Assembly: GCA_023150895.1 (NCBI GenBank)
Contig: JAKLJY010000075.1
Coordinates: 1 to 39,723, forward strand
Reading direction: 5' to 3'
DNA length: 39,723 bases
From: Myxococcota bacterium
GTDB taxonomy: Bacteria > Myxococcota_A > Bradymonadia > UBA7976 > UBA1532
The notes under the pieces are model-generated. The model saw only the letters and a list, made by a program, of their open reading frames with translations. It was not told the DNA's origin and ran no database searches. Within the stretch, counting starts at the first letter, position 1. Every line of letters starts with the position of its first letter. The translations under genes and the position numbers were made by a program. Below, piece by piece: positions 1 to 25,649 of the stretch.

Positions 1-758
1 CGGAGGCGCGGGCGCTTTTGAGCGAGGACGACACGGGGGGCGGGGGCGACGCGCCGGCGGGGTACGTGACGATTCCGACGGGCGAGTTCACGATGGGCTC
101 GCCGAGCGGGGAAAAGGGCCGCGACGGCGACGAGACACCGCACCGTGTGCGCATCACGCGAGGTTTCTACTTGAAAGCGACGGAGGTGACGCAGGGGGAG
201 TGGGAGTCGGTGATGGGGTCGAACCCGTCAGGATTCACCGACTGCGGGAAGACCTGCCCGGTCGAGAATGTCTCGTGGAACGACGCGGTGTCGTACCTGA
301 ACAAGCTGTCGGACCGAGAGGGCCTGGGGCGTTGCTACGACGCGAGCGGTGCGTTCGTGGGTTTGAGCTGCAAGGGGTACCGGCTGCCGACGGAAGCGGA
401 GTGGGAGTACGCGGCGCGTGCGGGGACGACGGGGGCGCGGCACGGTGACCTGGACGCCGTGGCGTGGTACGACGGCAACTCGGGAAGCACGACGCACCCG
501 GTGGGGAAGAAACGATCGAACGCGTGGGGGCTGTACGACATGTTGGGGAACGTGTCGGAGTGGACGAACGACCGGTATGGAGACTACGCAGATGGCACGG
601 GAACGGACCCCGTCGGTCCGGCCTCGGGCGAGATCCGCGTCCGCCGCGGGGGCAGTTGGGTCAACAACGCGCAGGGCGTGCGCGCCGCCCTCCGCCGCGG
701 GAGCACGCCCGACTACCGGAGCGGCAGCCTCGGTTTCCGCCCCCTCAGGGCTCGTTGA
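1..758 (+). CDS. 5'-truncated CDS encoding the C-terminal FGE-sulfatase (SUMF1/EgtB/PvdO-type) domain of a caspase–FGE fusion paralogue
   Basis: The frame continues from the window start (EARALLSEDDTGGGG…), matching the linker of paralogue 3. FGE-sulfatase hallmarks are present: RVRITRGFYL, TEAEWEYAARAG, GLYDMLGNVSEWTND, RVRRGGSW, GFRPLRAR*. Nucleotides 1–130 are near-identical to 7232–7360. Confidence 0.8.
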   Translation, partial: EARALLSEDDTGGGGDAPAGYVTIPTGEFTMGSPSGEKGRDGDETPHRVRITRGFYLKATEVTQGEWESVMGSNPSGFTDCGKTCPVENVSWNDAVSYLNKLSDREGLGRCYDASGAFVGLSCKGYRLPTEAEWEYAARAGTTGARHGDLDAVAWYDGNSGSTTHPVGKKRSNAWGLYDMLGNVSEWTNDRYGDYADGTGTDPVGPASGEIRVRRGGSWVNNAQGVRAALRRGSTPDYRSGSLGFRPLRAR

Positions 759-1010
759 CCCCTTGATCCTTGCACCCTCGATCCCTTGATCCACGCTCAC
801 CGAGCCGAAAGCGGACGCGGCGCCGGCCCCGGCGCGCTTGCGCGCCGAGAAGGGCACGGCAGAGCGGTCGCCGGCGAGCCCGCCCGCGCCGGTCGTAACG
901 GCGCGCGGGGGGTCGCAGTGGTCGCCGGCGAGGCCGCAGCGAGTGCCCTGCCGCGCGGCAGCCCGGGTGGGGTCCAGGGCAAAGCCCTGGTCGCGCAATC
1001 CTCAACCGTC
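759..1010. repeat. Intergenic structured repeat element, copy A (longest copy), immediately 3' of caspase–FGE paralogue 1
   Basis: Shares 'cccttgatccttgc…gatcccttgatcc…cgagccgaaagcgg…ggtcgccggcgaggccgcagcgagtgccctg(t/c)cgcgcggcagcccgggt(t/g)gggtccagggc..agccctggtc' with 3802–3940 and 8090–8305. It contains two predicted hairpins (gccgc-a-gcga/tcgc-gcggc and ccaggg/ccctgg). ORF-track 'proteins' through it (MRAEKGTAERS…, MPPRSLDP…, MRAEEGPP…) share sequence only because of the repeat. Confidence 0.6.
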
Positions 1011-1116
1011 AGTGAGCCGGACACACGCCCCGCCGCGCGACTTGAACTCCGGCCCGGCCTCTGACCTGATCGTCTCGTCCGGCCGCGCCTCGGCCGCCAT
1101 CCAGAGGGTCCCGTCC

Positions 1117-3801
1117 ATGTTTGCTCCCCGCCTGCTCGTTGCCACGGCCTTCGCACTCCTCGTCGGCGTGACTCTCGCGCCCTCCGCCGTCGCCCAGGAC
1201 GCCCCGAACGCGGCCGCGCGGTGGCCGAGCCTCACCGACGTGCCCCCGAAGGCGCCAGGCGGCGGGCAGGACGACGCGGCGGTCGTCGTGGGCATCGAGA
1301 AGTACGCCTTCTTGACGGGCATCCCCGGGGCGAAGGCCAACGCGCTGGCGTGGGAACGCTGGCTGCGCGACGTGCGACAAGTCCCCGGTGAACGCGTCCA
1401 TGTGCTCACGGACAACGACGGGACGCGGGAGAAGATCCTGACGCACGTGCGCAAGGCCGCGGCGGGGGTCCAGAAGGGTGGCACGCTCTGGATCGTGTTC
1501 ATCGGTCACGGCGCGCCGTCGCGGGAGAAACGCGCGGACGGGCAGGACGACGGGGTGCTGGTCGGGGTGGACGCGCAGCAGGATCCGGACGGTTTCTACG
1601 TGCGCGCGGTGGCGCAGGGCGACGTCGTCGGCGTCGCGCGGGAGACGGCCGCGCGGGGGGCCAACCCCGTGGTGATTCTGGACGCCTGCTTCTCGGGGCA
1701 GGACGCGACGGGGGCGTCGTTGTTGCCCGGCCGGATGGTCGCCCTGCCGGCCTCGCTGGCCCGAGTGGCCGACGTGATGGTCCTCTCCGCGGGCCGGGCG
1801 AAGGAGATGGCCGGTCCGCTGCCGGGGCCCGCCGACCGCCCCCGGCCGGCGTTCAGTTACCTGCTGCTCGGCGGTCTGCGCGGCTGGGCGGACGCCGGTG
1901 CCGCCGGCGCCCCGGGAGACGGTCGGGTGACCCCGGGCGAGGCGCTGTCCTACGTGCGCACCGTCTTCAACAAGCTCGATCCCACCCGGAGCCAGACGCC
2001 CGAGTGTTACCCCGAGAAGCTGTGCACCCGTCCGCTCGCGCGGAGCGCGGGTGAGAAGGCGCCCGACCTCGTGGCGCTCGCCCACCGCATGAGCGGGGGC
2101 GCCGGCAACGCCTACGGCCAGCCGTTTCAGCCGTTTCAGCCCTTCGACGGCGGGCTCGACTACGGGGAGAACATCCAGAACACCGTCGTCGACGACACGG
2201 GCTTCCTGCTCGTGACCTCGGAGCCGAGCGGCGCGACGGTGATGCTGAATGGCAAGGAGGTCGGCAAGACACCGTTCCAGAAGGAGGTGATGGTCGGCCG
2301 GTACCGCATCGTGCTCGAGGGGGTGGCGTTGCACCACGCGCACCAGGAGGAGATCACGCTGACGACGGCGGGGGCGAAGAAGAGGGTCACACTGCGGCCC
2401 GCGTTCGGGCGGTTGGTGGTCGAGACGACGCCGCCGGGCGCGCGGGTGAGCGTCGACGGGGCCGACGTCGGCGCAGGGCCGTACACCGATCCGCGGCGAC
2501 GCTCCGGGCGCTATGAGATCCGCGCGGCGGCGGACCTGTATCTGAGCGCGCGACAGACCGTCGAGGTCACCGACGGCCAGGAGACGCGCGTGTCATTGCG
2601 GCTCGAGCCCAACTTCGGCGCGCTGCGGGTCGAGAGCACGCCCCCCGGCGGCGAGATTCTGCTCGACGGCACGGCGACGGGGCAGGTGACGCCGTACACG
2701 TTCGAGCGCAAGCAAGTGGGCACCTACGCCGTCAGCGTGCGGCGGTCCGGATACGGCGAGCGCGGGGGCAAGGCGAGCGTGCGGGTCGGCGCCACCGAGA
2801 CGCTCGCGCTCACGCTGGAGGCGAAGCTCGGCCTGCTGTCGGTGACGTCCCTCGACGGCGACGGCGCCCCGTGCGAGGGCGCGCTCGCGGTGGACGGCGT
2901 GGCGCAGGGCACGACGCCGACCAAGGTGCAGCTCCCCGAGGGCCGCCACGAGGTGACGGTGAGGTGCGGCGCGGCCGAGGGCCGCGAGACCGTGCAGATC
3001 GGGCACAACGAGAAGGCCCGGGTGGAGGTGCGGATGCCGGCAAGGGCGCGGCCTCGGCCGTCGGAGGATCAGCCCGTGGTGACGTCGGGCGACGCGCCGG
3101 CGGGGTACGTGGCGATTCCGGCGGGGGAGTTCACGATGGGGTCGCCGAACGGGGAAGAGGGCCGCGAGAGCGACGAGAAGCAGCACCGTGTGCGCATCAC
3201 GCGTGGTTTCTACTTGAAAGCGACGGAGGTGACGCAGGGGGAGTGGGAGTCGGTGATGGGGTCGAATCCGTCGCACTTCAAGAGTTGCGGGGAGGATTGC
3301 CCGGTCGAGAACGTCTCGTGGACGGACGCGGTGTCGTACCTGAACAAGCTGTCGGACCGTGAGGGGCTGGGGCGGTGCTACGACGGGAACGACCGCTTCG
3401 TGGGTCTGAGCTGCAAGGGGTATCGGCTGCCGACGGAGGCAGAGTGGGAGTATGCCGCGCGTGCGGGGACGACGGGTGCGCGATACGGGGACCTGGACGC
3501 AGTCGCGTGGTACCGCGACAACTCAGGAAGAACGACGCACCCTGTCGGGCAGCAACGAGCGAGCTCTTGGGGGCTGTACGACATGCTCGGAAACGTGTGG
3601 GAGTGGACGAACGACTGGTATGCGGATTACCCGGGAGGGACGGTGACGGACCCCGTCGGTCCGGCCTCGGGCGAGCGCCGCGTCTTCCGCGGGGGCACTT
3701 GTTACTACGGCGCGCGGTTCGTGCGCGCCGCCAGCCGCCTCAGGTTCACGCCCGACCTCCGGGACAACGTCCTCGGTTTCCGCCCCCTCAGGGCTCGTTG
3801 A
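1117..3801 (+). CDS. Secreted multidomain protein: signal peptide, caspase-like peptidase C14 domain, PEGA repeats, C-terminal FGE-sulfatase domain
   Basis: N-terminus MFAPRLLVATAFALLVGVTLAPSAVAQ is a signal peptide. Caspase His/Cys motifs are LWIVFIGHGAP and VILDACFSG. Repeated PEGA-like units occur (TPPGARVSVDGADVG…, STPPGGEILLDGTATGQVTPYTF…, GALAVDGVAQGTTPTKV). The C-terminus carries FGE motifs (RVRITRGFYLKATEVTQGEWE, LPTEAEWEYAARAG, GLYDMLGNVWEWTND, RVFRGG, GFRPLRAR*). Start was set by frame arithmetic from ORF 838..3801. Confidence 0.8.
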   Translation: MFAPRLLVATAFALLVGVTLAPSAVAQDAPNAAARWPSLTDVPPKAPGGGQDDAAVVVGIEKYAFLTGIPGAKANALAWERWLRDVRQVPGERVHVLTDNDGTREKILTHVRKAAAGVQKGGTLWIVFIGHGAPSREKRADGQDDGVLVGVDAQQDPDGFYVRAVAQGDVVGVARETAARGANPVVILDACFSGQDATGASLLPGRMVALPASLARVADVMVLSAGRAKEMAGPLPGPADRPRPAFSYLLLGGLRGWADAGAAGAPGDGRVTPGEALSYVRTVFNKLDPTRSQTPECYPEKLCTRPLARSAGEKAPDLVALAHRMSGGAGNAYGQPFQPFQPFDGGLDYGENIQNTVVDDTGFLLVTSEPSGATVMLNGKEVGKTPFQKEVMVGRYRIVLEGVALHHAHQEEITLTTAGAKKRVTLRPAFGRLVVETTPPGARVSVDGADVGAGPYTDPRRRSGRYEIRAAADLYLSARQTVEVTDGQETRVSLRLEPNFGALRVESTPPGGEILLDGTATGQVTPYTFERKQVGTYAVSVRRSGYGERGGKASVRVGATETLALTLEAKLGLLSVTSLDGDGAPCEGALAVDGVAQGTTPTKVQLPEGRHEVTVRCGAAEGRETVQIGHNEKARVEVRMPARARPRPSEDQPVVTSGDAPAGYVAIPAGEFTMGSPNGEEGRESDEKQHRVRITRGFYLKATEVTQGEWESVMGSNPSHFKSCGEDCPVENVSWTDAVSYLNKLSDREGLGRCYDGNDRFVGLSCKGYRLPTEAEWEYAARAGTTGARYGDLDAVAWYRDNSGRTTHPVGQQRASSWGLYDMLGNVWEWTNDWYADYPGGTVTDPVGPASGERRVFRGGTCYYGARFVRAASRLRFTPDLRDNVLGFRPLRAR

Positions 3802-3940
3802 TCCCTTGATCCTTGCCCCCTCGATCCCTTGATCCATGCTCATCGAGCCGAAAGCGGTCGCCGGCGAGGCCGCAGCGAGTGCCCTGTCGCGCGGCAGCCC
3901 GGGTTGGGTCCAGGGCGGAGCCCTGGTCGGGCACTCTTCA
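3802..3940. repeat. Intergenic structured repeat element, copy B (internally deleted variant)
   Basis: Same cccttgatcc direct repeats and conserved hairpin core as copies A and C. Relative to copy A it lacks the segment between two 'gcggtcgccggcgag' direct repeats. Confidence 0.6.
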
Positions 3941-3950
3941 CACGACGGGC

Positions 3951-4553
3951 CTAGCCACCGAGACGACGGAGCGCCTTGCCGAGCTCGTCCATGAAGTGGC
4001 CCAGCGAAGGGCTGCCCTTCGACGCACGGAACGGATCGAGGAAGGGCATCAGATCGGCCGCGACGTCCATCGGATCGTTGAGCACCGGGATGCCCGCCGC
4101 CTCCAGCGCGTCGCGCAACCAGACCTTGTAGCCGCGGCGCCCGGGCTTGGCCGGTGGCGGCCCGGGGTCGACGCCGAGCGCCGACTTCAACGCGACGCGG
4201 TCGGCGGCGCACCAGGCCTCGACGTGCGGGTCCGGGCACGCGATGACCGTCTCCCGGAAGAGATCGGGCTGCAGATGCGCCGCGACACTGCGGCGCTGGG
4301 CGCCCCAGCCCTCACCGTTGGCGTCGATCATCACCACGAGAAGGTCCGCCGTCGAGGGCGCGACACCGCGGGCCAGGGACCGTTGCCACAAGTCGAGCTC
4401 GCTCAACGCGCGGCCGTGCCCGCCCCGGGCCGATCGGGCCGTCACGGTCGGGAGAGGCAGTTTCCGTTCGTCGGCCAGCCTGCGGATGAGGGCCCGCGCG
4501 AACGCCTCGTGGCCGGCGTCCTCGCAGAAGAGATCGATCTCCAGGTCAGCCAT
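3951..4553 (-). CDS. DUF4276-like protein (predicted divergent TOPRIM/OLD-nuclease-like partner of the upstream ATPase)
   Basis: N-terminus MADLEIDLFCEDAGHEAF… fits the short-strand plus acidic/Glu start typical of DUF4276. An LLVVMIDANGEGW acidic motif is present. It is about 200 aa, the usual size for the family. Its start codon overlaps the ATPase stop by 8 bp (ATGGCTGA). Family assignment is from remembered motif patterns only, not a search. Confidence 0.5.
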   Translation of the reverse strand: MADLEIDLFCEDAGHEAFARALIRRLADERKLPLPTVTARSARGGHGRALSELDLWQRSLARGVAPSTADLLVVMIDANGEGWGAQRRSVAAHLQPDLFRETVIACPDPHVEAWCAADRVALKSALGVDPGPPPAKPGRRGYKVWLRDALEAAGIPVLNDPMDVAADLMPFLDPFRASKGSPSLGHFMDELGKALRRLGG

Positions 4554-5796
4554 CCATCCAACCCCGCGTGACGGCCGCCTGAACCACGGCCGCGTCCTCC
4601 GCGGCGACGAGCGCCTCGCGCAGCGCCTGGTCCGCAAAGAGGGGGCCGGTCGGGTCGAACCCCTTCAATCGCGTGCCATGCGCGCCGACGCTGCATTGCA
4701 GCAAGCGCACGTCCCGGGCGTCGAGGTCGCCCTCCCGGACGAGCCCGATGATCTCACCGACGACGATGGGTGAGTGGGTCGTCACGATGACCTGCCGGCG
4801 CCGAGACGCCGTGGCGAGCAGGCGGCTGACGACCTCGATGCGGCGCGGGTGCACGCCGTTCTCGGGCTCCTCGAAGGCGAGCAGGCCGGTCTCGAGCGGA
4901 CTTGCGGCCATTGCGCACAGCGCCAGCACCCGCAGCGTGCCTTCCGAGATGACCCGACCGGAGAGCCAGAGGCCATCTTGTTTGATCTTCAGGTCGATCT
5001 CGCCACGTGCGGCCACGAGCTCGGTGTCGATGGCCTCGATGCTGGGCACGACCGCCCGGACACCTCGCACGACCGCGTCGAACGCCGGCTTCCACTCCGG
5101 CGTCGACCTGAGGCGGTGCAGAAACGGAACCAGGTGTTCGCCGCGCGCGCCGATGTCGTCGACCTCGCGCGGCGGTTGAGCGCCGCGCATACGCTCGCCC
5201 GGGTCCAGATACACGACTCGCCAGGCACCGATCTCGTGCCGGAGCGCGTCGAAGTCCGGGAACCGTTCGGCGCCCGCGTACTGCCGGTTCGAGGCGAAGC
5301 TGTGGCCGAGTCCCACGGGTTCGACGAAGGGGTGGCTTTGGCCTCCCTTGCGCCGGACGCGGAAACTCGACTTGCCCTCCGCGTCCACGCGCTCGAGGGC
5401 AGGCATCCCCTTGGGCGTCGACGCCTTCGTGAGGCGGCCGAGCCACTCGTCCGTCAGAAACATCTGCCCGGTCTCGGTGCGGGCGCCGACGGCCACGCGA
5501 TAGCGCAGGTCGCCCCCCTGCGCGGGCGACAGGTCGGCCGAGAACTCGATCGGGGCCGGGTTGCCTTGGCCTTCGGGGAACGGACGCGAGAAGGCCTCCA
5601 TCGGGTAGCCGCGCAGGCCGGCGTCGAAGGCCTCCGCCAGCGTGCGCTCGCCCACCAGGCGGGAGAGCAGGACGAGCGACTCCAGCAGGTTGCTCTTCCC
5701 CGCCGCGTTCGGGCCGAACACGACGACGAGCCGACCGAACTCGGCCTCGACGTGTCGCAGCGACTTGAATCCTCGAACGGTCAGTCTGTGAAGCAT
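4546..5796 (-). CDS. AAA_21/AAA_15-type ABC ATPase (OLD/AriA/AbiLi-like predicted ATP-binding protein)
   Basis: N-terminus MLHRLTVRGFKSLRHVEAEFGRLVVVFGPNAAGKSNLLESL is a Walker A motif in the SMC/RecF/OLD-like ABC configuration. The C-terminus has QVIVTTHSPIVV (Walker B / D-loop / H-loop region). Start was chosen at the Met preceding the conserved N-terminal strand (residue 113 of ORF 4546..6132). Confidence 0.7.
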   Translation of the reverse strand: MLHRLTVRGFKSLRHVEAEFGRLVVVFGPNAAGKSNLLESLVLLSRLVGERTLAEAFDAGLRGYPMEAFSRPFPEGQGNPAPIEFSADLSPAQGGDLRYRVAVGARTETGQMFLTDEWLGRLTKASTPKGMPALERVDAEGKSSFRVRRKGGQSHPFVEPVGLGHSFASNRQYAGAERFPDFDALRHEIGAWRVVYLDPGERMRGAQPPREVDDIGARGEHLVPFLHRLRSTPEWKPAFDAVVRGVRAVVPSIEAIDTELVAARGEIDLKIKQDGLWLSGRVISEGTLRVLALCAMAASPLETGLLAFEEPENGVHPRRIEVVSRLLATASRRRQVIVTTHSPIVVGEIIGLVREGDLDARDVRLLQCSVGAHGTRLKGFDPTGPLFADQALREALVAAEDAAVVQAAVTRGWMDG

Positions 5797-5989
5797 GGCG
5801 TTCGATACCACGAAGCGCCGCGCGCGTCGAAGGCCGGGGTCCCGCCGCGGTGCCCGACACTCCCGACGCACGCCGTCGGATGCGTGTGCGCCGTGCGTCA
5901 TGCGCGCAGGTCGTGCCCCCGCACGCCCCTTGAATTCCACACCGGCCCGTGCGTCGATCCGGTCCTGATTCAACCGCGCGGGGGCCGCG

Positions 5990-8089
5990 ATGTTTCTCAC
6001 AAATCGAACACTGGTTGCCGCCGTCACGTTGTCGGCGCTCACGACGCTGGCCCCGGGCCTCTCGGACGCGGCGACGCCGGCGCGGTGGCCGACGCTGGCG
6101 GAGCCGCCGGCGGGCGCGGCGGGCGGGGGCAAGGCGGACGCGGCGGTGATTGTGGGGGTGGAGGACTACGCCTTTCTGCCGGACGTGCCGGGGGCGGTGG
6201 CGAACGCGAACGCGTGGGAGACGTGGCTGGAGCGGACGCGGAAGGTGCCGGGGGAGCGCATCCGGGTGCTGCGCAACGAGCAGGGGACGAACTCGAAGAT
6301 CAAGGCGGCGCTGGAGGGCGCGGCGAAGGACGTGCAGCGCGGCGGGACGCTGTGGGTGGTCTTCATCGGGCACGGCGCGCCGATGGCGCAGACGAACGAC
6401 GGCGTGCTGGTGGGGGTGGACGCTCAGCAGGACCCGCTGGGGTTCTACAGCCGCGGCCTGCGGCGCGGCGAGGTGCTCGAGGTCGCGGGCCGCGCGGCGG
6501 CGCGGGGGGCGAACCCGGTGGTGGTGCTGGACGCATGCTTCAGCGGGCGTTCGGCGGGGGGCGCGTCGCTGTTGCCGGGGTCGCAGGTGGCGCTGCCGGC
6601 GTCGTTCGCGACGGCGGGGTCGGTGACGGTGCTGAGCGCCGGGGCGGCGCACGAGATCGCGGGCCCGCTGCCCGGGCCGGTGGACGTGCAGCGGCCGGCG
6701 TTCAGCTACCTGATGCTGGGGGCGCTGCTGGGCTGGGCCGACGGGGCGCTGGACGAGCGTGCCGACGGCGAGGTGACCGTGCCCGAGGCGCTGACCTACG
6801 TGCGGCGCGCGCTGCGAAAGCTGGACGCGACCCGCGAGCAAACGCCGGAGTGCGCGCCTGCGGAGCGCTGCGGGGCGTCGCTGGGCAAGAGCGCGGGCGA
6901 GCGGGGGCCGGACCTCGGGGCGCTGGCGGGGGTGGTGAACCCGCCGGTGCGACCCGTCGACCCGGGGCCGTCCGGCGGCGGGTTCGACGCGGCGATTCGT
7001 GCGGCGCTGGAGAAGCAGGCTGCGGCGGACGCAGCGCGTGCGGAGGCGGAGCGGGTAGCGGCGGAGGCGGCGAGGCTGGAGCGCGAGGCGCGTGCGGCGC
7101 ACCTCGCGCGGGTGGACGCGGACTTCACGAAGGTGAAGACGGCGGCGAAGGCGGGGCCGTTGGCGGCGAAGGCGGCGGTGGAGGCGTTCATCGGGGCGTA
7201 CGCGAAGCACCCTTTGGGGAACCCGCGGGAGGCGGAGGCGCGGGCGCTTTTGAGCGAGGACGACACGGGGGGCGGGGGCGACGCGCCGGCGGGGTACGTG
7301 ACGATTCCGGCGGGCGAATTCATGATGGGGTCGCCGGAAAGTGAAGAGGGCTATTGCTGGGGCGAGAAACGCCACCGTGTGCGCATCACGCGCGGTTTCT
7401 ACTTGAAAGCGACGGAGGTGACGCAAGGGGAGTGGGAATCGGTGATGGGGTCGAACCCGTCGCGCTTCAAGAACTGTGGGAAGACCTGCCCGGTAGAGAG
7501 TGTCTCGTGGATCGACGCGGTGTCGTACCTGAACAAGTTGTCGGACCATGAGGATCTGCCGCGGTGCTACCACGCGAACGGGGCGTTCGTGGGGCTGAGC
7601 TGCAAGGGGTACCGGCTGCCGACGGAGGCGGAGTGGGAGTACGCGGCGCGTGCGGGGACGACGGGGGCGGTGTACGCGGGGACGTGGGACATCGTGGGGG
7701 AGAACAACGCGCCAGCGCTGGGACCCATCGCCTGGTACGGGGGGAACAGCGGGGTCTCCTACGAAGGGGGATCTTGGTGCGGCGATCGGCCGGAGAAGCA
7801 GGAGGCATCGAGCACGTGCGGCACGCACCCGGTGGGGCAGAAGCGCGCGAACGCGTGGGGGTTGTTCGACATGCTCGGAAACGTGGAAGAGTGGACGAAC
7901 GACTGGAGTGATCAATACCCGGGAGGCAAGGAGACGGACCCCGTCGGTCCGGCCTCGGGCGGGTTCCGAAGCACCCGCGGGGGCGGTTGGAGCAACATTG
8001 CGCGCCACGTGCGCGCCGCCGTCCGCGGCTGGTACGCGCCCGGCAACCGGTTCGACTACCTCGGTTTCCGCCCCCTCAGGGCTCGTTGA
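5990..8089 (+). CDS. Secreted caspase-like (peptidase C14)–coiled-coil–FGE-sulfatase fusion protein (paralogue 3)
   Basis: Signal peptide MFLTNRTLVAAVTLSALTTLAPGLSDA. Caspase motifs LWVVFIGHGAP and VVLDACFSG. Ala/Glu/Arg-rich coiled-coil linker (AAADAARAEAERVAAEAARLEREARAAH). FGE domain with an about 50-aa insertion (VYAGTWDIVGENNAP…CGTHPVG) and C-terminal GFRPLRAR*. Confidence 0.8.
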   Translation: MFLTNRTLVAAVTLSALTTLAPGLSDAATPARWPTLAEPPAGAAGGGKADAAVIVGVEDYAFLPDVPGAVANANAWETWLERTRKVPGERIRVLRNEQGTNSKIKAALEGAAKDVQRGGTLWVVFIGHGAPMAQTNDGVLVGVDAQQDPLGFYSRGLRRGEVLEVAGRAAARGANPVVVLDACFSGRSAGGASLLPGSQVALPASFATAGSVTVLSAGAAHEIAGPLPGPVDVQRPAFSYLMLGALLGWADGALDERADGEVTVPEALTYVRRALRKLDATREQTPECAPAERCGASLGKSAGERGPDLGALAGVVNPPVRPVDPGPSGGGFDAAIRAALEKQAAADAARAEAERVAAEAARLEREARAAHLARVDADFTKVKTAAKAGPLAAKAAVEAFIGAYAKHPLGNPREAEARALLSEDDTGGGGDAPAGYVTIPAGEFMMGSPESEEGYCWGEKRHRVRITRGFYLKATEVTQGEWESVMGSNPSRFKNCGKTCPVESVSWIDAVSYLNKLSDHEDLPRCYHANGAFVGLSCKGYRLPTEAEWEYAARAGTTGAVYAGTWDIVGENNAPALGPIAWYGGNSGVSYEGGSWCGDRPEKQEASSTCGTHPVGQKRANAWGLFDMLGNVEEWTNDWSDQYPGGKETDPVGPASGGFRSTRGGGWSNIARHVRAAVRGWYAPGNRFDYLGFRPLRAR

Positions 8090-8305
8090 CCCCTTGATCC
8101 TTGCCCCCGTGATCCCTTGATCGACGACGACCGAGCCGACAGCGGACGCGGCGCCGGCCCCGGCGCGCTTGCGCGCCGAAGAGGGCCCGCCCGCGCCGGT
8201 CGTAACGGCGCGCGGGGGGTCGCAGCGGTCGCCGGCGAGGCCGCAGCGAGTGCCCTGTCGCGCGGCAGCCCGGGTTGGGTCCAGGGCGGAGCCCTGGTCA
8301 AGCGA
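8090..8305. repeat. Intergenic structured repeat element, copy C
   Basis: Near-identical to copy A except for a roughly 24-bp deletion. It sits directly after the stop of paralogue 3. Confidence 0.6.
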
Positions 8306-8379
8306 TGGTCGACCTGCCGCTCTGGCAGCCCGGCCGACCGCACCTTGCGACACTCGGCCCGTCGTGGCACCGTCTGGGC

Positions 8380-8982
8380 ATGAGCGCCGCGCTGAAGCCC
8401 GACGTCATCGACTACCTCGCGCTGGAGGCCGCCTCCGCGGACCGCCACGAGTTCTACGCGGGCGAGATCGTGGCGATGGGAGGCGCGCGGCCGCGCCACA
8501 ACGCCGTCGCGATGGAGCTCGCCCTGGCCGTGGGCGGGGCGCTGCGTGGCCGTCCCTGCCTCGTGTTCTCCTCCGATCAGCGCGTTCGGCTCGAAGCCTC
8601 CGACGCCTTCTGCTACCCCGACTTGACCGTCGTCTGCGGTGAGCCGCGCTTCATCGGGCCGGCGCCCGAGTCGCTCGTCAACCCGACGGTCGTCTTCGAG
8701 GTGGTCTCGCCCTCGACCGAACGCTGGGATCGCGGCGGCAAGTTCGGTCACTACCGGGCCTGCCCGTCGCTGCGAACGTACGTCCTGCTCGATCCGCGGT
8801 CGCGGACGGTCGAGTGGTTCGAACGCCCGGCCGGGGACGACGCTCCCGGAGGAGCGTGGGTCTATCGCGCGATGACGGGAGAAACCCCCGCGCGCCTCGA
8901 CGCGCTCGGCGTCACCCTCGTGCCCGCGGCGCTGTTCGCCGTGCTCGATCGCCTGCCACCCGAGGACGACGCCCCGGGCTGA
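8380..8982 (+). CDS. Uma2-family (DUF820, PD-(D/E)xK-like) putative restriction-endonuclease-fold protein
   Basis: About 200 aa with the family-typical pattern YELIDG-like …EFYAGEIVAMGGARPRHNAV… and VVFEVVSPSTERWDRGGKFGHY (catalytic E-V-x-S…D…K). Start at MSAALKPDVIDYL, set by frame arithmetic. Confidence 0.6.
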   Translation: MSAALKPDVIDYLALEAASADRHEFYAGEIVAMGGARPRHNAVAMELALAVGGALRGRPCLVFSSDQRVRLEASDAFCYPDLTVVCGEPRFIGPAPESLVNPTVVFEVVSPSTERWDRGGKFGHYRACPSLRTYVLLDPRSRTVEWFERPAGDDAPGGAWVYRAMTGETPARLDALGVTLVPAALFAVLDRLPPEDDAPG

Positions 8983-9079
8983 CGCCGGCACCCCGGCCGC
9001 TCGCCCGCCTTGAATTTCCCGCGCCGCCGTGCGTCACTCCCCGTGCTGGCGTTGAACGGTCGACCGGAAGGCGGGGCGC

Positions 9080-10405
9080 ATGCGCCGAGGAGAACGCTCG
9101 AAAAACCAGGCATCGGCGGGGTCGTCGGGGAGGGCGCTCGCTCTCGCCGCCGCGGTGTCGTTCGCGCCCGCGAGCGCGGCCGGCGCCGAAGAACCCGACT
9201 GCCAGCCCGAGTACCCGGCGGGCACCTGGCACTTCGCCGTCGGGTACGCCGAGCGGGCGGCGTCGGCGCTCGCCGCCGAGCAGGCCGCGCGAGACGACGC
9301 CGGCCGCCGGCTCATGGAGCGCATCACCGCGCCCTTCACCCCGGCGCAGCGGGACGTCATCCGGGCGGCCATCGACACGTCGTACTCCAAGCCCCGCGTC
9401 CTGCCGAACCCCGCCGGCGGCTTCGATGCCTGCGCGTTTGCCCTCATCCCGGCGTCGGGTCTGTCGGACGACGTCCTGCGGCGCGACGCCGATGCCTTCG
9501 ACGCCGCGCTGCGGGAGCGCTGGGCGGCGCTGCGCGCGGCGGTGGGCGGTTCGAAACCCCTGCGCGTTCGCCTCGACCCGACGACCTGGGGCGAAGATCA
9601 GGACGCCGGCGAGCTCGGGCAGGCGTTCCGGATGCACCTGCGCACGACCGCGCCCGCCGGTACCGTCTTCGTCGACGAGGTGCGGGACGGGCGTGGCGCG
9701 CTCTCCGTGCGCACGCGCCTTTCGAGCGACGGCCGGGGCCTCGCGGCGGAGGTGGCTTACAGGGTCGACCGCGGCTGGGCCGTCGCCGGCGCGCTCGTCG
9801 CGTTCGCGCCGCGCAGCCTCGGTCTGGTCGACGCGCAGCCGCCCGCCGAGTCGTTCTTGTCCGACCGCCGCCTCGGCCTGCCGAACGGCGGCGAGCGCGT
9901 CGGCAAGGGCGGCCTGCGCGTCACGCTCGACGTCCCGCAGGAGGCGGAGATGTGCGAGGGCCGCCGCTACGCCGTGCAGCTCACCGCGAACCGGCCGGCC
10001 TACGTCGTCGTGCTCAGCGTGCTGGACGACGGCCGCGTCGTGCGTGGCTGGGAGACGCCCGAGCCCGTCACCGCCTGGCGCTCCCCCCCCGAGCATGACG
10101 CCGTCGCCGTGCCCGTCGAGGGCGCCAACGGGGTCGCGCTCAGCGACCGCATGGTGGCCATCGCCGTCCCGGCGGCCCTGGGGAGAGAGTCACTGTCGGC
10201 CGCCGTGCCGCCCCCCGCCTGTGTCACCGAGCCGGGCCGCGGCTTCGACGCCGCACGCCTCCCCCCCGAAGCGGCGGTCGCGACGACCCGCGTCGCCGTC
10301 GTCCGGGCCGGCCGTGCCTACTGCCCGCCGCTCTCGACCGAAACGAAACGCCTCGTCACCGATCTGCAGGGCTTCCTGCGCGATGACGGAAACCGCTGCA
10401 AGTGA
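9080..10405 (+). CDS. Secreted hypothetical protein with a DUF4384-like C-terminal region
   Basis: Signal peptide ALALAAAVSFAPASAAGA. The segment RYAVQLTANRPAYVVVLSVLDDGRVVRGWETPEP resembles the DUF4384 β-rich core that is recurrently associated with caspase/FGE-domain proteins. Assignment is tentative. Confidence 0.45.
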   Translation: MRRGERSKNQASAGSSGRALALAAAVSFAPASAAGAEEPDCQPEYPAGTWHFAVGYAERAASALAAEQAARDDAGRRLMERITAPFTPAQRDVIRAAIDTSYSKPRVLPNPAGGFDACAFALIPASGLSDDVLRRDADAFDAALRERWAALRAAVGGSKPLRVRLDPTTWGEDQDAGELGQAFRMHLRTTAPAGTVFVDEVRDGRGALSVRTRLSSDGRGLAAEVAYRVDRGWAVAGALVAFAPRSLGLVDAQPPAESFLSDRRLGLPNGGERVGKGGLRVTLDVPQEAEMCEGRRYAVQLTANRPAYVVVLSVLDDGRVVRGWETPEPVTAWRSPPEHDAVAVPVEGANGVALSDRMVAIAVPAALGRESLSAAVPPPACVTEPGRGFDAARLPPEAAVATTRVAVVRAGRAYCPPLSTETKRLVTDLQGFLRDDGNRCK

Positions 10406-10449
10406 CAGGAGACCGACCCATGACACACCCCGCCTCTGATTCGAAACAC

Positions 10450-11535
10450 ATGGCCCGGCTTGCGCTCGCCGGCCTGATTGCCGTGTCGCTCGGCGCTTGC
10501 GGTGGTCCGCCCGCCGGCGGCGGCCCGCGCTTCACCGACATTCAGCCGAAGAAGAACTTCTACCTGCGGCCGGGGGGCCCCGACAAAGACCCCGGCGCTT
10601 ACCTGGGGCGCTTCGTGCCCGCCGGCACGGCCGACAGTGCCATCGACGACGCCGAAGCCATGCAGACCGAGTGCAGTCAGTACTTCTCCAAGAAGGTCGT
10701 GCCCGCCGGCGGCGTGACGATGAGCGAGTACTTCGCCGTTTCGGGCGGCGGGGGCGCCAGCTTCGGCGTGCCTCCCGTGGCCGTGCAGGTCGGCGGCGAG
10801 CGCACCAACGTCCTGAAGGTCGACTACACGCAGACGGAGAAGTGGATCGCCGAGATCCCGCCCGAGAACCGCGCCAACTTCGACGCCTGCTGCGCCAAGG
10901 CGCCCAGCAACTGCACGGACCGCTACATCGGCGAGTTCCTGGCCGGCACCGGCACGTTCTTCGGCGCGGACGCCTCCAGCGGCGGCGCGCAGGTCGGCAC
11001 GGCCCACGGCAGCGCCGGGTTCACCGACTCGATGGAGTGGCGCCGCGGCATGGAGTTGAAAGAGCCCAACTTCTTCGCGTTCCGGGTCACGCGCCGGGGC
11101 ACCGGCAACGACAACGTCGGTCCCGTCGTCAGTCTGTGCCAGCGCCCGTGGGATCTCGAGATTCCCAAGGGCGTCGAGGGGCAGTATTTCGTCGGCACCT
11201 CCAAGGCCCTCGACGACGAGAGCATGGCCCGCGACGACGCGATGGACAACGCCCGCCGACAGATCGTCAAGTGGCTCGGCGAACAGATCCAGCAGAAGCG
11301 GGTCGAGGTGCAGGGCTTCTCCGGCTCGGGTGCCGACCTCACCACCCGGCTCACCAGCGAGGAGAACATCACCCGCGCCTCGGGCGGCGTCGCCAGCCTC
11401 GTCAAGGACGAGTGCTGGAAGGTCGAGACCTCGACCTCGCCGACGGGCAAGAAGTACCACGTCAAGGCGCTCGCCCTGATCCCCGCCGCCGTGACGGCTC
11501 AGGCCGCCGCGGCGGTGCTCGGCGCGGCGAAGTAG
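10450..11535 (+). CDS. Lipoprotein of unknown function
   Basis: MARLALAGLIAVSLGAC carries the lipobox L-G-A-C. The rest is a Gly/Asp-rich mature protein with no recognisable catalytic motif. Clean ORF; its frame differs from the overlapping Arg-rich artefact ORF 10497..13541. Confidence 0.5.
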   Translation: MARLALAGLIAVSLGACGGPPAGGGPRFTDIQPKKNFYLRPGGPDKDPGAYLGRFVPAGTADSAIDDAEAMQTECSQYFSKKVVPAGGVTMSEYFAVSGGGGASFGVPPVAVQVGGERTNVLKVDYTQTEKWIAEIPPENRANFDACCAKAPSNCTDRYIGEFLAGTGTFFGADASSGGAQVGTAHGSAGFTDSMEWRRGMELKEPNFFAFRVTRRGTGNDNVGPVVSLCQRPWDLEIPKGVEGQYFVGTSKALDDESMARDDAMDNARRQIVKWLGEQIQQKRVEVQGFSGSGADLTTRLTSEENITRASGGVASLVKDECWKVETSTSPTGKKYHVKALALIPAAVTAQAAAAVLGAAK

Positions 11536-11549
11536 CCCCCCCGTCCCGC

Positions 11550-13484: not shown

Positions 13485-13515
13485 GGTCTGTCTCCTGGCG
13501 GTTTGGGCGAGAGGG

Positions 13516-24230: not shown

Positions 24231-25649
24231 ATGTACGATTACGACTGGTTGGTCATCGGCTCCGGCCCCGCCGGCGAGAAGGGCGCCGTCCAGGCGGCGT
24301 GGTTCGGGCGCCGCGTGGCGGTGGTCGAGCGCGCGCCGGCGCACGGCGGGGCGTGCGTCCACACGGGCACGCTGCCGAGCAAGACGCTGCGCGAGACGGC
24401 CCTCTACCTCTCCGGGCACCGCCAGCGCGAAATGTACGGCCTCGACGTGCACCTGCAGCGCGATGTCTCCGTGAGCGATCTCATGTGCCGTCAAGCGGCC
24501 GTCCTCGGCAACGAAGCCGCCCGCATCGCGCGCAACTTCGAGCGCCACGGCGTGACGCAGCTTCGGGGCCACGCCGATTTTGTCGACGCGCACACCGTCC
24601 GCATCACGCCGCCCGAGGGCGCGGGGGCGCCCTACACGGTCACGGCCGACGCCATCCTGATTGCGACGGGCACGCGGCCGTTCCGCCCGGCGTGGGTGCC
24701 CTTCGGCGACCCGGGCATCGACTGCTCGGACACCATCCTGAACCTCGACCGCATCCCGCGCGCGATGGTGGTGCTCGGCGGGGGCGTGATCGGGTGCGAG
24801 TACGCCTCGATCTTCGCCGCCCTCGGCACGCGCGTCACCCTCGTCGAGGGGCGCGAACAGATCCTGGGCTTCCTGGACCCGGAGATCAACGCGCGGCTGT
24901 CGTCGGCGCTCGAGGCGCTCGGCTGCGAAATTCTGCTGAAACGCGAGGTCGTGCGCGTCGGGCGCGACGGCGACGGCACGCTCGTCTGTACGCTGGCGGA
25001 CGGGCGCGCGCTGCCGTGCGAGCGTCTGCTCTTCGCGGGCGGGCGCTCGGGCAACGTGGAGGGGCTCGCCCTGGAGAACGCCGGGATCACGCACGGGCCG
25101 CGCGGCCTGCTGAGCGTCGACGCGAACTACCGCGTGCAGAGCGCGCACGGCGGGCGCATCTACGCCGCGGGTGACATCATCGGCTTCCCGGCGCTGGCGT
25201 CGGTGGCGATGGAGCAGGGACGCGTCGCGGCGTGTCATGCCTTCGAACTCGGGTACAAGAGCGCCGTGTCGCCGCTGTTCCCCTATGGGCTCTATACCAT
25301 CCCGGAGGTGGCCACCATCGGCGAGACCGAGGCGCAGGCGACGGCTCGCGGCGAGGTGGTCGAGACCGGGCGGGCGTCCTACGGCGACAACGCCCGCGGT
25401 CAGATCGTGGGCGATCTGCAGGGGCTTCTGAAGGTGGTCTTCCGCGTGGCGGACAAGCGCTTGCTCGGCGTTCACATCATCGGTGAGCGGGCCACCGAGC
25501 TCGTGCACGTCGGCCAGACGGTGATGGCCCTCGACGGCACCATCGACACGCTGGTGCATCAGGTCTTCAACTTCCCGTCGCTGGGCGAGCTCTACAAGTA
25601 CGCCGCCTACGACGGCCTCGGGCGGCTCGCGCGGCGGGGGGCGAAGTGA
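24231..25649 (+). CDS. sthA: Soluble pyridine nucleotide transhydrogenase (Si-specific NAD(P)+ transhydrogenase)
   Basis: Collinear with E. coli SthA: MYDYDWLVIGSGPAGE (FAD GxGxxG), RVAVVER, GTLPSKTLRE, VLGGGVIGCEYASIF (NAD GxGxxG), YAAGDIIGFPALAS, LYTIPEVATIGETE, and no redox-active disulfide CxxxxC. Size is about 472 aa. Confidence 0.85.
   Translation: MYDYDWLVIGSGPAGEKGAVQAAWFGRRVAVVERAPAHGGACVHTGTLPSKTLRETALYLSGHRQREMYGLDVHLQRDVSVSDLMCRQAAVLGNEAARIARNFERHGVTQLRGHADFVDAHTVRITPPEGAGAPYTVTADAILIATGTRPFRPAWVPFGDPGIDCSDTILNLDRIPRAMVVLGGGVIGCEYASIFAALGTRVTLVEGREQILGFLDPEINARLSSALEALGCEILLKREVVRVGRDGDGTLVCTLADGRALPCERLLFAGGRSGNVEGLALENAGITHGPRGLLSVDANYRVQSAHGGRIYAAGDIIGFPALASVAMEQGRVAACHAFELGYKSAVSPLFPYGLYTIPEVATIGETEAQATARGEVVETGRASYGDNARGQIVGDLQGLLKVVFRVADKRLLGVHIIGERATELVHVGQTVMALDGTIDTLVHQVFNFPSLGELYKYAAYDGLGRLARRGAK

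Follow-up and report, generated by a model that had tools for sequence, protein, structure and literature searches.

Three caspase–lectin paralogues of a Myxococcota genome as very probable targets of a diversity-generating retroelement whose core is absent from the syntenic site

Caspase–lectin genes and their neighbours

The window, the whole 39,723-nt stretch of DNA analysed here, is a contig of a Myxococcota metagenome-assembled genome (MAG) and carries three paralogous genes, all on the + strand, each ending in a PF03781 FGE-sulfatase domain (Pfam, E 1e-42 to 1e-46). Paralogue 1 (1..758, frame read from nt 3) runs off the contig, which leaves only its 3' part, with the FGE domain as the one domain visible: the end of a helical linker like that of paralogue 3 leads into a TvpA-like FGE-sulfatase/C-type-lectin (FGE/CLec) domain (PF03781 E=2.5e-46). 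Paralogue 2 (1117..3801, 894 aa; start codon and N-terminus MFAPRLLVATAFALLVGVTLAPSAVAQ) has a signal-peptide-like N-terminus, a Peptidase_C14 caspase (PF00656, 28.6 bits against a cut-off of 21.4), four PEGA domains at about nt 2400-3040 (PF08308, E=4e-43, 4 stretches) and a TvpA-like FGE/CLec domain (PF03781 E=2.4e-45). Paralogue 3 (5990..8089, 699 aa) likewise has a signal-peptide-like N-terminus, a caspase (H128/C183) and a TvpA-like FGE/CLec domain, the latter with a 33-residue insertion; its linker consists of a 58-residue helix and further helices (helix 331-388 in the AlphaFold model, mean pLDDT 82.7). The swapped middle modules described in an earlier sequence-only reading thus correspond to PEGA in gene 2 versus a long helical linker in gene 3. 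The same reading called the proteins secreted; the N-termini of genes 2 and 3, which we judged by eye, do resemble signal peptides, secretion itself being a prediction.

That reading also described a tandem array. The three paralogues do share a strand, but two minus-strand genes separate the second from the third: a DUF4276-like gene (3951-4637; Pfam DUF4276 E=0.0019, PADLOC HEC-01B E=2e-4) and an AAA_21/OLD-type ATPase gene (ORF 4546-6132; Pfam AAA_21 E=2e-30, PADLOC HEC-01A E=2e-54), whose ATPase domain begins near residue 113. This two-gene module (3951..6132) is defence-like, lies outside the paralogue family and splits the array. On the contig of the closest relative (L001), about 88% identical to the window in nucleotides and with gene order kept, the corresponding interval is occupied by ISL3 transposase genes and by a gene for a BrnT-type toxin adjoining an HTH-domain gene. 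Downstream of paralogue 3 lies a Uma2-family endonuclease gene (8380..8982, + strand; PF05685 E=2e-29), followed by a 441-aa protein (9080-10405) that has no Pfam match even at E<=10. Its proposed identity as a DUF4384-like protein, and with it the suggested link of that family to caspase/FGE proteins, is therefore unsupported.

The caspase His/Cys dyad had been recognised from the sequence and ascribed to all three genes; it holds for genes 2 and 3: FIGHGAP and LDACFSG are present in both, are invariant in 46 homologues (H128, C183) and align to SGHG and DSCHSG of the caspase-like protein 3BIJ, while the MALT1 paracaspase is a fold match of the paralogue 3 caspase (Foldseek E=3.5e-9). For the lectin domain of paralogue 3 the best fold match is Treponema denticola TvpA (2Y3C; Foldseek E=2.6e-21, TM 0.76). 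By sequence, too, the FGE domains match TvpA (E=7e-30 and 3e-39) better than true FGE (about 1e-15 and 1e-21), and TvpA is the best solved relative of paralogue 1 (E=3.4e-39, against 8.5e-22 for true FGE). True FGE (human SUMF1; Streptomyces FGE, 6MUJ/2Q17) shares with the window domains the overall fold and the scaffold motifs RLPTEAEWEYAAR, GNVWEW, RGGS... and LGFR, but both of its copper-binding cysteines (C-H-x-S-Y-C) align here to an Asn and a 3-residue gap. The name under which paralogue 3 is deposited at NCBI (MCK6573455.1, 'SUMF1/EgtB/PvdO family nonheme iron enzyme [Myxococcota bacterium]') is therefore misleading. Judged from these alignments and the predicted fold, the C-terminal domain is a TvpA-like lectin of the type found in diversity-generating retroelements (DGRs), not a formylglycine-generating enzyme, which bears out the earlier suggestion that it serves in ligand binding and is no oxidase.

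Finally, the left end of the contig deserves attention. A near-identity of nt 1-130 to 7232-7360 had been offered as evidence of gene conversion. The match is exact only between nt 1-77 and 7233-7309, with 4 mismatches up to nt 104 and 14 in 105-130 (about 46% identity), and other FGE-domain tracts are equally conserved among the three copies, so that this tract says little about conversion. An assembly break at a repeat would leave just such an exact match at a contig end, and assemblers often use k-mers of 77 nt; it is quite possible, if short of probable, that the identity and the paralogue 3-like linker of gene 1 are assembly products, and that gene 1 is a short lectin-only target: the exact match begins at contig base 1 and decays at once, the positional counterpart of gene 1 in the relatives L001 and L003 is a 288-aa protein with a signal peptide and an FGE domain but neither linker nor caspase, and DGR loci with short lectin-only targets beside long ones have been published (PMC10907252). 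Against this, a graph-node k-mer is normally real in both copies, and gene 1 may thus carry at least 77 nt of the paralogue 3-like linker.

Adenine-specific variation in the last 147 nt

In a DGR, the transcript of a template repeat (TR) is reverse-transcribed by a reverse transcriptase (RT) with Avd, bases are randomly misincorporated opposite adenines, and the cDNA replaces a variable region (VR). We compared the 3' ends of the window genes with the 147-nt TR of L001 (14385-14541, inverted), the window contig itself having none. All three genes end in a 147-nt VR that differs from this TR mainly at its adenines: VR1 (609..755, + strand) at 21/36 TR-A sites against 5/111 others (p=1.4e-11), VR2 (3652..3798, +) at 24/36 against 7/111 (p=7e-13) and VR3 (7940..8086, +) at 24/36 against 10/111 (p=2.6e-11). 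When the three VRs were compared with one another, 31/36 TR-A columns varied versus 7/111 of the others (p=6e-20). The TR adenines are distributed 18:17:1 over codon positions 1, 2 and 3, and in a test confined to the window the variation at these positions was 17/17/4 in the VRs and 28/28/49 in the constant part (p=6e-5). Identity outside the TR-A sites is 94-98% in the VRs but falls to 85-86% in the 510 nt next to them (p=1e-4 to 0.014). This adenine-specific pattern indicates that the three genes are DGR targets diversified by mutagenic retrohoming; on a TR taken from another genome (L001), we regard it as very probable that they are variable-protein targets, which would extend an already known type of system to a new lineage.

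The repetition extends beyond the coding sequence: about 200 nt of non-coding DNA 3' of each stop codon, missed in the earlier reading, is repeated as well. After paralogue 1 a tandem array of the 8-nt unit TTGATCCC starts at the stop codon (755..792, + strand, about 5 copies; TRF period 8, 4.9 copies) and is followed by a non-coding 3' flank (793..1008, +) with a 75-nt block common to the three copies and an inverted repeat forming the hairpin CCAGGGC-AAA-GCCCTGG (974-990). Gene 2 is followed by an array (3798-3835) and a shortened version of the conserved flank (together 3798..3945, +; hairpin 3910-3926), and gene 3 by a degenerate array (8086-8120) and the conserved flank (together 8086..8299, +; hairpin 8281-8297). 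Flank cores of 31 and 36 nt occur 3 times each in the window, where 0 are expected. The canonical post-VR hairpin of DGRs is GC-rich, has a GRNA loop and lies 4-34 bp from the VR (PMC3240598); none was found after the VRs of the window. In the loci we fetched, FGE-type genes are followed by the 8-nt periodic motif, and the TRs of 5 loci have no such motif behind them. On this distribution, the array is a candidate target-side recognition element, and the conservation of such an 8-nt tandem repeat behind each VR is possibly new.

The retroelement core in relatives and the empty site

Directly after its gene 3 orthologue, L001 carries HRDC (PF00570), bAvd (PF22296), an RVT_1 RT with the motifs IGNLTSQ and YMDD, and the TR. 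Its VR-TR mismatches fall at adenines in 25/26 and 23/24 cases within a 145-nt core. A contig 95% identical to L001 (L007) differs from it in the VR at 22 positions, every one of them a TR-A site, while divergence beyond the VR is 4%; by this sequence comparison the DGR is active in the sister lineage. In cassettes of this clade HRDC stands alongside Avd and the TR follows the RT.

The window lacks this core at the syntenic site. L001 9932-12280 corresponds to window 5921-8299, the conserved flank of gene 3 being the final syntenic stretch before the core, and L001 14597-22100 corresponds to window 8380-15862; between them, where L001 has 2.3 kb of HRDC-bAvd-RT-TR (12281-14596), the window has 80 nt without similarity to L001 (8300..8379). 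The right-hand neighbour of the DGR locus, the Uma2 gene, is kept in both genomes (93.5% identical). Queries with HRDC, Avd and RT against the whole window (tblastn) gave no match, and the contig has no TR, RT or Avd. Among 5.8 billion proteins, a database that includes the window contig's NCBI proteins, no RT exceeded 69% identity except that of the sister lineage. Scans for sequence patterns in genome and metagenome collections found no matching TR; the source genome itself was not recovered in them.

The VRs have also acquired changes outside the TR-A sites. VR2 has two private non-A changes, one of which turns the Trp of the conserved GGSW into Cys, VR3 has five and VR1 none; these 7 compare with none at all in three VRs from relatives that have the core (p=0.015). 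Two further non-A differences from the TR are common to all three window VRs (a fossil VR of L001, VR1o, has one of them); they may stem from a variant TR of this genome or, just as well, from a change in the relative's TR.

Taken with the empty site, these observations make it somewhat more likely that the targets are orphaned and frozen than that a core elsewhere serves them in trans. The latter is a serious if lesser possibility: the core may have moved, or a second copy may act on 'remote' targets that are still being diversified. Reading frames, the IMH-like sequence at the end of homology and the post-VR repeat array are kept in all three genes, and VR1 has no private non-A change. Remote DGR targets are also documented by Vallota-Eastman et al. 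2020 (PMC7517822), the Trichodesmium DGR has 12 targets (PMC4143802), and a 9.3 Mb genome (L009/L010) contains caspase-FGE genes with the post-VR repeat and no RT within 10 kb. On the other side stand the empty syntenic core site, the want of an orthologous RT of this MAG in the protein database, the private substitutions of VR2 and VR3, the degenerate repeat array of gene 3 and the pattern scans without a matching TR, although these scans also missed this genome. The MAG is presumably incomplete, and a missing database RT is no proof of loss. VR1, free of private non-A changes, could be recently homed.

Gene conversion acts additionally, within the constant portion of the lectin domain. L001 paralogues 2 and 3 are 100% identical over 663 nt of their FGE domains, and a 99-nt deletion is present in window genes 1 and 2 but in none of the other four copies. 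That conversion occurs in the family, and that the locus is a diversifying one, the sequence-only reading had right; its mechanism, mainly duplication and gene conversion, gives way to adenine-specific mutagenic retrohoming. Its model, in which ordinary tandem paralogues duplicate, swap modules and convert one another under selection for diversity and no retroelement takes part, accommodates these tracts, the differing PEGA and helical modules and the exact 77-nt repeat, but is very improbable, as it leaves unexplained the concentration of variation at TR adenines in the last 147 nt, the avoidance of third codon positions and the DGR core adjoining the orthologue.

Proposed mechanism and known systems

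As DGR targets, the three genes would have been rewritten in the last 49 codons of the lectin domain, the VR, by cDNA made from the TR, with HRDC joining RT and Avd in its reverse transcription. Since nearly all TR adenines occupy the first or second base of a codon, most often AAC, the rewriting would be confined to ligand-contacting lectin residues and the scaffold kept. The hypervariable head is tethered to the N-terminal caspase-type protease, in gene 2 through the four PEGA domains and in gene 3 through the long helix, and each protein may be an extracytoplasmic protease or protease-linked sensor that takes its specificity from the diversified lectin head. A three-member family could thus cover different ligands.

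The closest parallel in the lectin is the TvpA DGR of Treponema denticola (PDB 2Y3C; 'architecture C', Wu et al. 2018, PMC5758913), which shares the FGE-sulfatase-type C-type-lectin fold, the VR at the extreme C-terminus and an HRDC-containing cassette, as in the window's clade. Unlike that system, the window has three targets, their lectin head fused to a caspase via PEGA or helical spacers, no core cassette and, immediately behind the VR, an 8-nt tandem repeat in place of a hairpin. The Bordetella phage BPP-1 DGR (mtd-avd-TR-brt) has in common the adenine-specific flow from TR to VR, a 3'-end VR, TR adenines in codon positions 1-2 and an end of homology at an IMH-like GC-rich segment; it differs in its 8-bp GC hairpin/cruciform with GRNA loop 4-34 bp from the VR, and in that the TR of the window's clade follows the RT (inverted in L001) and the targets are chromosomal and multi-domain.

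The statement that the function of caspase-FGE fusions is unknown overlooks the orthocaspase-CLec DGR targets described for cyanobacteria. There, orthocaspase N-termini occur on DGR variable proteins and their paralogues, and the account in PMC7517822, as far as it concerns these proteins, agrees with the window in the caspase-type N-terminus with diversified CLec, several paralogues per genome and remote or degenerate targets. In the same passages the cyanobacterial proteins are mostly predicted to be cytosolic, whereas those of this Myxococcota have predicted signal peptides; no PEGA spacer like that of gene 2 appears in them, and the core is missing at the window's syntenic site, which sets it apart from the DGRs they describe. 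DGR-diversified conflict-system sensors (Kaur et al. 2020, PMC7159879; Dore et al. 2024, PMC10907252) likewise have a hypervariable FGS/CLec domain presumed to be the binding module, together with caspase-like effectors, social or multicellular lineages and short lectin-only targets beside longer ones, but the window locus showed no MoxR, vWA, STAND NTPase or adaptor domain, and its protease and lectin are on one apparently secreted polypeptide. Finally, a survey of bacterial metacaspases had found FGE-sulfatase to be their fifth most widespread partner (33 sequences; Asplund-Samuelsson et al. 2012, PMC3501461). The domain pair is the same, but FGE was read there as a catalytic modifier, whereas the window domain, without the catalytic cysteines, would be a DGR-type lectin.

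Target genes, template and adenine-specific variation

The window, a 39,723-bp NCBI contig labelled "Myxococcota bacterium" with a G+C content of ~72%, carries three paralogous plus-strand genes at its left end. P1 (1–758, +) is the 3' part of a gene of which the FGE-sulfatase domain alone is visible. P2 (1117–3801, +; 894 aa) encodes a signal-peptide-like N-terminus, a Peptidase_C14 domain, four PEGA stretches (PF08308, E=4.1e-43) and an FGE-sulfatase domain, and P3 (5990–8089, +; 699 aa) has the same ends and protease domain with a helical linker in the middle. The sequence-only reading had described a tandem array of three caspase–FGE genes, with PEGA repeats in the second and a DUF4384-like protein downstream. 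Its domain calls, PEGA included, are borne out for P2 and P3, but the N-terminus of P1 lies beyond the contig end, and the array is not strictly tandem: two minus-strand genes, one DUF4276-like (3951–4637, −) and one for an AAA_21 ATPase (4546–6132, −), separate P2 from P3. After P3 come a Uma2 endonuclease gene (8380–8982, +) and a gene for a 441-aa protein lacking any Pfam match (9080–10405, +); as this protein returned no Pfam family at E≤10 and no NCBIfam match, the DUF4384 (PF14326) assignment is unsupported.

A homologue search returned a JGI contig with proteins 88% (P3) and 86% (P2) identical to those of the window. The loci of this relative, namely the overlapping L001 and L002 and, from another sample, L003, share one gene order. 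A short FGE-only gene comes first and the P2 orthologue second; a variable insert separates the latter from the P3 orthologue, which is followed by HRDC (PF00570), bAvd (PF22296), RVT_1 and Uma2, and then by the counterpart of the 441-aa protein gene. The RT of L001 has IGNLTSQ and YMDD motifs, and Avd together with an RT of this type is the mark of a diversity-generating retroelement (DGR). When the 3' end of the L001 P3 orthologue was compared by BLAST with its own contig, a fourth copy of ~150 nt was found on the opposite strand (14385–14541), just past the RT gene and with AAC where the gene copies vary. This copy is the template repeat (TR).

All three window genes end in a 147-nt stretch (VR1, 609–755; VR2, 3652–3798; VR3, 7940–8086) that aligns without gaps to this TR (14385–14541, minus), a reference that comes from the relative L001 and not from the window's own genome. 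Within L001 itself, over a 145-nt core, 25 of the 26 mismatches between TR and the variable region (VR) of the P3 orthologue fall at TR adenines, as do 23 of 24 for the P2 orthologue, leaving one elsewhere in each. The window regions show the same specificity: VR1 differs from the TR at 21 of 36 adenine sites and 5 of 111 others (p=1.4e-11), VR2 at 24/36 and 7/111 (p=7e-13), and VR3 at 24/36 and 10/111 (p=2.6e-11), while the columns that vary among the three comprise 31 of the 36 adenine sites and 7 of the 111 others (p=6e-20). TR adenines are distributed over codon positions 1, 2 and 3 as 18:17:1; the TR translates as ...RGGSWNNNAQNARAANRNRNTPDNRNNNLGFRPL, where the window genes read RGGSWVNNAQGVRAALRRGSTPDYRSGSLGFRPL, RGGTCYYGARFVRAASRLRFTPDLRDNVLGFRPL and RGGGWSNIARHVRAAVRGWYAPGNRFDYLGFRPL. 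A test confined to the window gave variable columns at codon positions 1/2/3 of 17/17/4 in the VR versus 28/28/49 elsewhere in the domain (p=6e-5). Finally, VR1–VR3 are 94–98% identical at non-adenine sites and the adjoining 510 nt 85–86%, which is what repeated overwriting from a single template should leave behind. Altogether, adenine specificity, codon-position bias and scaffold identity identify P1, P2 and P3 as DGR variable-protein (target) genes. The earlier suggestion of a diversifying system was thus right in spirit but missed the mechanism behind the variation. TR–VR homology stops 3 nt short of the stop codon (VR CCCCTCAGGGCTCGTTGA, TR CCCCTCAGCGCTCGGCCA), with unrelated flanks beyond, and the VR end is predicted to act as an IMH-like end-of-homology sequence, differing from the IMH* of the TR. 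From established DGR biology, TR-derived cDNA would overwrite the VR and recode ~17 codons.

In the sister lineage the DGR is clearly active. L007 and L001 are 95% identical over 2.5 kb; all 22 of their VR differences (22/22) lie at TR adenines, 4% of positions differ outside the VR, and the VRs of this lineage carry no private non-adenine changes. The L001 TR (14385–14541, −) is inverted relative to the Avd and RT genes and the targets, and converges on the RT gene across a common GC-rich hairpin (~14283–14318); in four other loci of the RT clade (L013, L016, L017, L018) the TR lies after the RT and shares its orientation. Since the L001 VRs are clean, the inverted TR evidently still works.

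Recent duplication or gene conversion had been proposed from a near-identity of positions 1–130 with P3. The first 77 nt do match 7233–7309 exactly, but identity falls to ~46% over 105–130 and other tracts are equally conserved among P1, P2 and P3, which makes this weak evidence for conversion. An assembly break at a repeat leaves just such an exact match from the first base of a contig; assemblers commonly use a k-mer of 77, and the contig probably starts at an unresolved repeat (1–77). What the match does establish is a P3-like linker end in P1 (EARALLSEDDTGGGGDAPAGYVTIP). Other observations make gene conversion real in the family. In L001, 663 nt of the constant lectin part of the P2 and P3 orthologues (4638–5300 and 11288–11950) are 100% identical, the N-terminal halves being different genes and the VRs differing at adenine sites, which indicates recent gene conversion or domain duplication within that genome; and P1 and P2 have in common a 99-nt deletion not found in the other four copies, the window paralogues being otherwise 82–86% identical. 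Conversion is nevertheless secondary to retrohoming. The positional counterpart of P1 in the relatives encodes a 288-aa signal-peptide-plus-lectin protein whose VR is broken off half-way. This short, lectin-only first target (L001 1711–2577) has neither the repeat array described below nor the IMH-like end; it is a decayed target keeping an older scaffold state.

Lectin and caspase domains of the target proteins

The C-terminal "FGE" (formylglycine-generating enzyme) domain is a DGR-type lectin and no enzyme. In phmmer searches its best solved relative was TvpA, the DGR variable protein of Treponema denticola (E=7e-30 for P3 and 3e-39 for P1, versus ~1e-15 and 1e-21 for true FGEs), and TvpA (2Y3C) was also the top Foldseek match of the P3 lectin domain (E=2.6e-21, TM 0.76, rmsd 2.7). 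When P1 was aligned with Streptomyces FGE, the copper-binding LCHDSYC segment corresponded to VNN plus a 3-residue gap, and P2 and P3 have YYG/SNI at this segment; the copper-binding cysteine pair of catalytic FGE (CxxxxC) is therefore absent from all three proteins in this alignment check. The sequence-only reading had considered a binding rather than an oxidase module here, and the TvpA match and the missing cysteines bear it out. The database name "SUMF1/EgtB/PvdO family nonheme iron enzyme" is accordingly corrected: the genes encode lectin heads made hypervariable by a retroelement, in two cases tethered to a caspase-type protease.

That protease domain scores 28.6 bits (P2) and 29.8 bits (P3) against PF00656, above the curated cut-off of 21.4, and also matches NF047832 ("caspase, EACC1-associated type"; E=2e-14 for P2 and 4e-17 for P3), both below that model's own cut-off. 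G127-H128-G129 and D181-x-C183 are invariant across an alignment of 46 homologues and align with SGHG and DSCHSG in 3BIJ, a caspase-like protein. P3 as modelled by AlphaFold (mean pLDDT 82.7) has a compact alpha/beta domain at about residues 50–316, mostly with high pLDDT, followed by a 58-residue helix, shorter helices and a C-terminal beta-rich domain, and Foldseek matched the N-terminal part to the MALT1 paracaspase (E=3.5e-9). Invariance, the 3BIJ alignment and the fold match uphold the earlier claim of an intact His/Cys dyad for P2 and P3. Their N-terminal domain is thus assigned to Peptidase C14 with a caspase-hemoglobinase fold, for which proteolytic activity is predicted. The N-termini of P2 and P3 (MFAPRLLVATAFALLVGVTLAPSAVAQ and MFLTNRTLVAAVTLSALTTLAPGLSDA) have no lipobox cysteine, and export would be through Sec. 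Judging from sequence, the variable lectin head may pick the substrate or the activating ligand of the attached protease, and three heads may cover different ligands. In a myxobacterium the ligands could conceivably be surfaces of prey or competitors, be phage, or serve kin recognition.

Metacaspase–FGE-sulfatase fusions were catalogued in 2012 (33 sequences; PMC3501461), orthocaspase N-termini were described in 2020 for cyanobacterial DGR variable proteins and paralogues of these (PMC7517822), and the coupling of DGR-diversified lectin domains to caspase-like effectors in multicellular bacteria was discussed in 2020 and 2024 (PMC7159879, PMC10907252). About 15% of DGRs have multiple targets and 4% HRDC genes (PMC5758913). 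The papers found by a literature search for DGRs in Myxococcota mention this lineage solely for retrons or other topics. Compared with the known systems, the one described here differs in its lineage, the signal peptides, the PEGA spacer, the missing core and a repeat array that stands in for a hairpin. With it, the class of DGR targets that combine caspase and C-type lectin (CLec) domains reaches beyond cyanobacteria into Myxococcota and comes to include apparently secreted proteins, which fits the idea that social bacteria vary recognition modules by DGRs. Current understanding of DGRs is not overturned, and to a specialist the system is ordinary save for its probably orphaned state and the repeat array.

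Absence of the core from the window

By tblastn, the HRDC, Avd and RT proteins of L001 have no match in the 39.7-kb window. Synteny is preserved on both sides of the gap, with L001 9932–12280 corresponding to window 5921–8299 and L001 14597–22100 to window 8380–15862 (95% identity); between them, the 2.3 kb of HRDC-Avd-RT-TR in L001 is replaced by 80 unrelated nt (8300–8379). Looking further, we searched 5.8 billion proteins, a database that includes the NCBI proteins from the window contig, for an orthologous RT from the window's MAG; this returned the sister lineage at 98% identity, with the next best match at 69%. The only Myxococcota RT match at NCBI is 53% identical and belongs to a different MAG with its own DGR. 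Pattern scans with the TR (N at TR adenines) did not recover the window's genome either: the genome collection yielded just an unrelated Thiobacillaceae target (L004), and the metagenome collection three short contigs, of which one belongs to the sister lineage and the others are more distant.

The VRs themselves bear on whether the targets have been orphaned or are still served in trans. VR1, VR2 and VR3 carry 0, 2 and 5 private non-adenine changes, a total of 7 versus 0 in the core-bearing relatives (p=0.015), and one of those in P2 converts the conserved Trp of GGSW to Cys. We read this as mild decay following loss of the writer. Orphaning is the reading we lean towards, with reserve, since the MAG is possibly incomplete and VR1 shows no such change; for the same reasons, continued service in trans retains a real chance, somewhat short of even. 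Non-adenine differences common to VR1–VR3 were considered as proof of a resident TR and rejected, because one of them also occurs in the truncated fossil VR of L001 and the change may instead have arisen in the relative's TR. The two lineages offer a natural comparison between a core beside targets with clean adenine-site turnover and the same site without a core and with slightly decayed VRs, and the pair is useful for asking what becomes of targets once the writer is lost.

Genes of the family with no RT close by also occur among the relatives. One large genome (OW818691.1, a 9.29 Mb record) encodes an identical 745-aa family protein twice, at sites ~277 kb apart (L009 and L010, 10001–12238 in each). 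The 8-nt repeat follows the stop codon of each copy, and no RT lies within 10 kb of either; these genes are possible remote DGR targets. A Polyangiaceae MAG (L008, 5295–12391) has three tandem paralogues with hypervariable C-termini and conserved 3' flanks, and no RT on its 15-kb contig, which suggests that arrays of three recur in the caspase–lectin family.

Repeat array in the 3' flanks and neighbouring genes

About 200 nt past each stop codon are repeated together with P1, P2 and P3. They begin, at or just past the stop codon, with ~5 tandem 8-nt units (TTGATCCC; consensus CCCTTGAN, 4–5 units), detected by TRF at 755–792 and 3798–3835 and as a degenerate copy at 8086–8120. A CCTTGA-like periodic array follows FGE-type genes in the DGR loci L001, L013, L016, L017 and L018 and also in the RT-less relatives L008 and L009/L010; after TRs, it was absent in 5 of 5 examined. 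The pattern CTYGNNNNCTYGNNNNCTYG gave 18 matches in 18 fetched loci (~300 kb), several of them duplicates from the overlapping L001/L002/L003, and each match whose coordinates were compared lies 3–25 nt past an FGE-type stop codon or, in the short contigs L005–L007, ~30 nt past a VR-scaffold match. Arrays in the relatives are located at L001 5461 and 12111, L008 7553 and 12394, L009/L010 12241, L013 8890 and 11601(−), L016 8949, L017 8764, and L018 2446 and 9020. The window has two matches to the pattern versus 0.14 expected. A narrow literature search found no description of such an 8-nt array.

In DGRs of the BPP-1 type, a GC-rich hairpin/cruciform with a 4-nt GRNA loop is expected 4–34 bp past the VR (PMC3240598), though high-confidence examples are limited to 34% of DGRs (PMC5758913). 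Here it is absent, and the first 100 nt past the VR fold like shuffles (z +1.1 to −0.3). The sole conserved hairpin, with a 7-bp stem and a 3-nt loop (AAA or GGA), lies 110–215 nt downstream, inside a 75-nt non-coding block that is identical or nearly so after all three genes (920–992, 3856–3928, 8227–8299). An Rfam scan of the whole window gave no family at threshold, so the conserved flank is no known RNA; the flanks contain neither an intrinsic terminator nor a sigma-70 promoter, and the 75-nt block has no terminator T-tract. Since the BPP-1-type hairpin is absent and the array follows VRs and not TRs, we regard the array, which stands where the hairpin does in BPP-1-type DGRs, as a candidate target-side signal telling VR from TR in the HRDC-Avd-RT clade. 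A bolder proposal, which we put forward tentatively and consider less likely than not, is that it constitutes a new target-site recognition element replacing the hairpin/cruciform, possibly read by the HRDC protein. If so, the array would mark lectin genes as rewritable anywhere in a genome, and P1–P3 would be "addressable" targets that a core cassette, whenever present, could re-activate. The conserved repeat past every VR is a concrete and testable candidate cis element in DGR targeting.

The slot between P2 and P3 holds different cargo in the two lineages. In the window (3951–6132, −) it contains the OLD/AAA_21 ATPase and DUF4276-like genes, comparable to the PADLOC candidate defence system HEC-01; PADLOC gave HEC-01A at E=2e-54 and a weak HEC-01B at E=2e-4, the DUF4276 match being below the Pfam cut-off. 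In L001 (5878–9896) the slot has ISL3 transposase genes, several genes of unknown function and a BrnT toxin gene adjoining an HTH-domain gene. The slot thus has the look of a hotspot within the DGR locus where defence or mobile cargo collects. The Uma2 gene (8380–8982), a match to PADLOC candidate PDC-S03 at E=6e-18, is the immediate neighbour of the DGR locus in both the window and L001, and L017 has a Uma2-family gene (138–704) ~6 kb from its target; this neighbourhood may be coincidence or reflect a linked function. Further along the window, an S8 subtilase of 1427 aa with carboxypeptidase-regulatory-like repeats and a malectin domain (18718–23001, −) and a CotH-kinase-family protein (25646–27532, +) have domains that suggest an extracytoplasmic location. 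Finally, an 841-aa protein (33590–36115, −), which has vault repeat domains and a Major Vault Protein shoulder (E=3e-27), is a homologue in bacteria of the shell protein of eukaryotic vaults.
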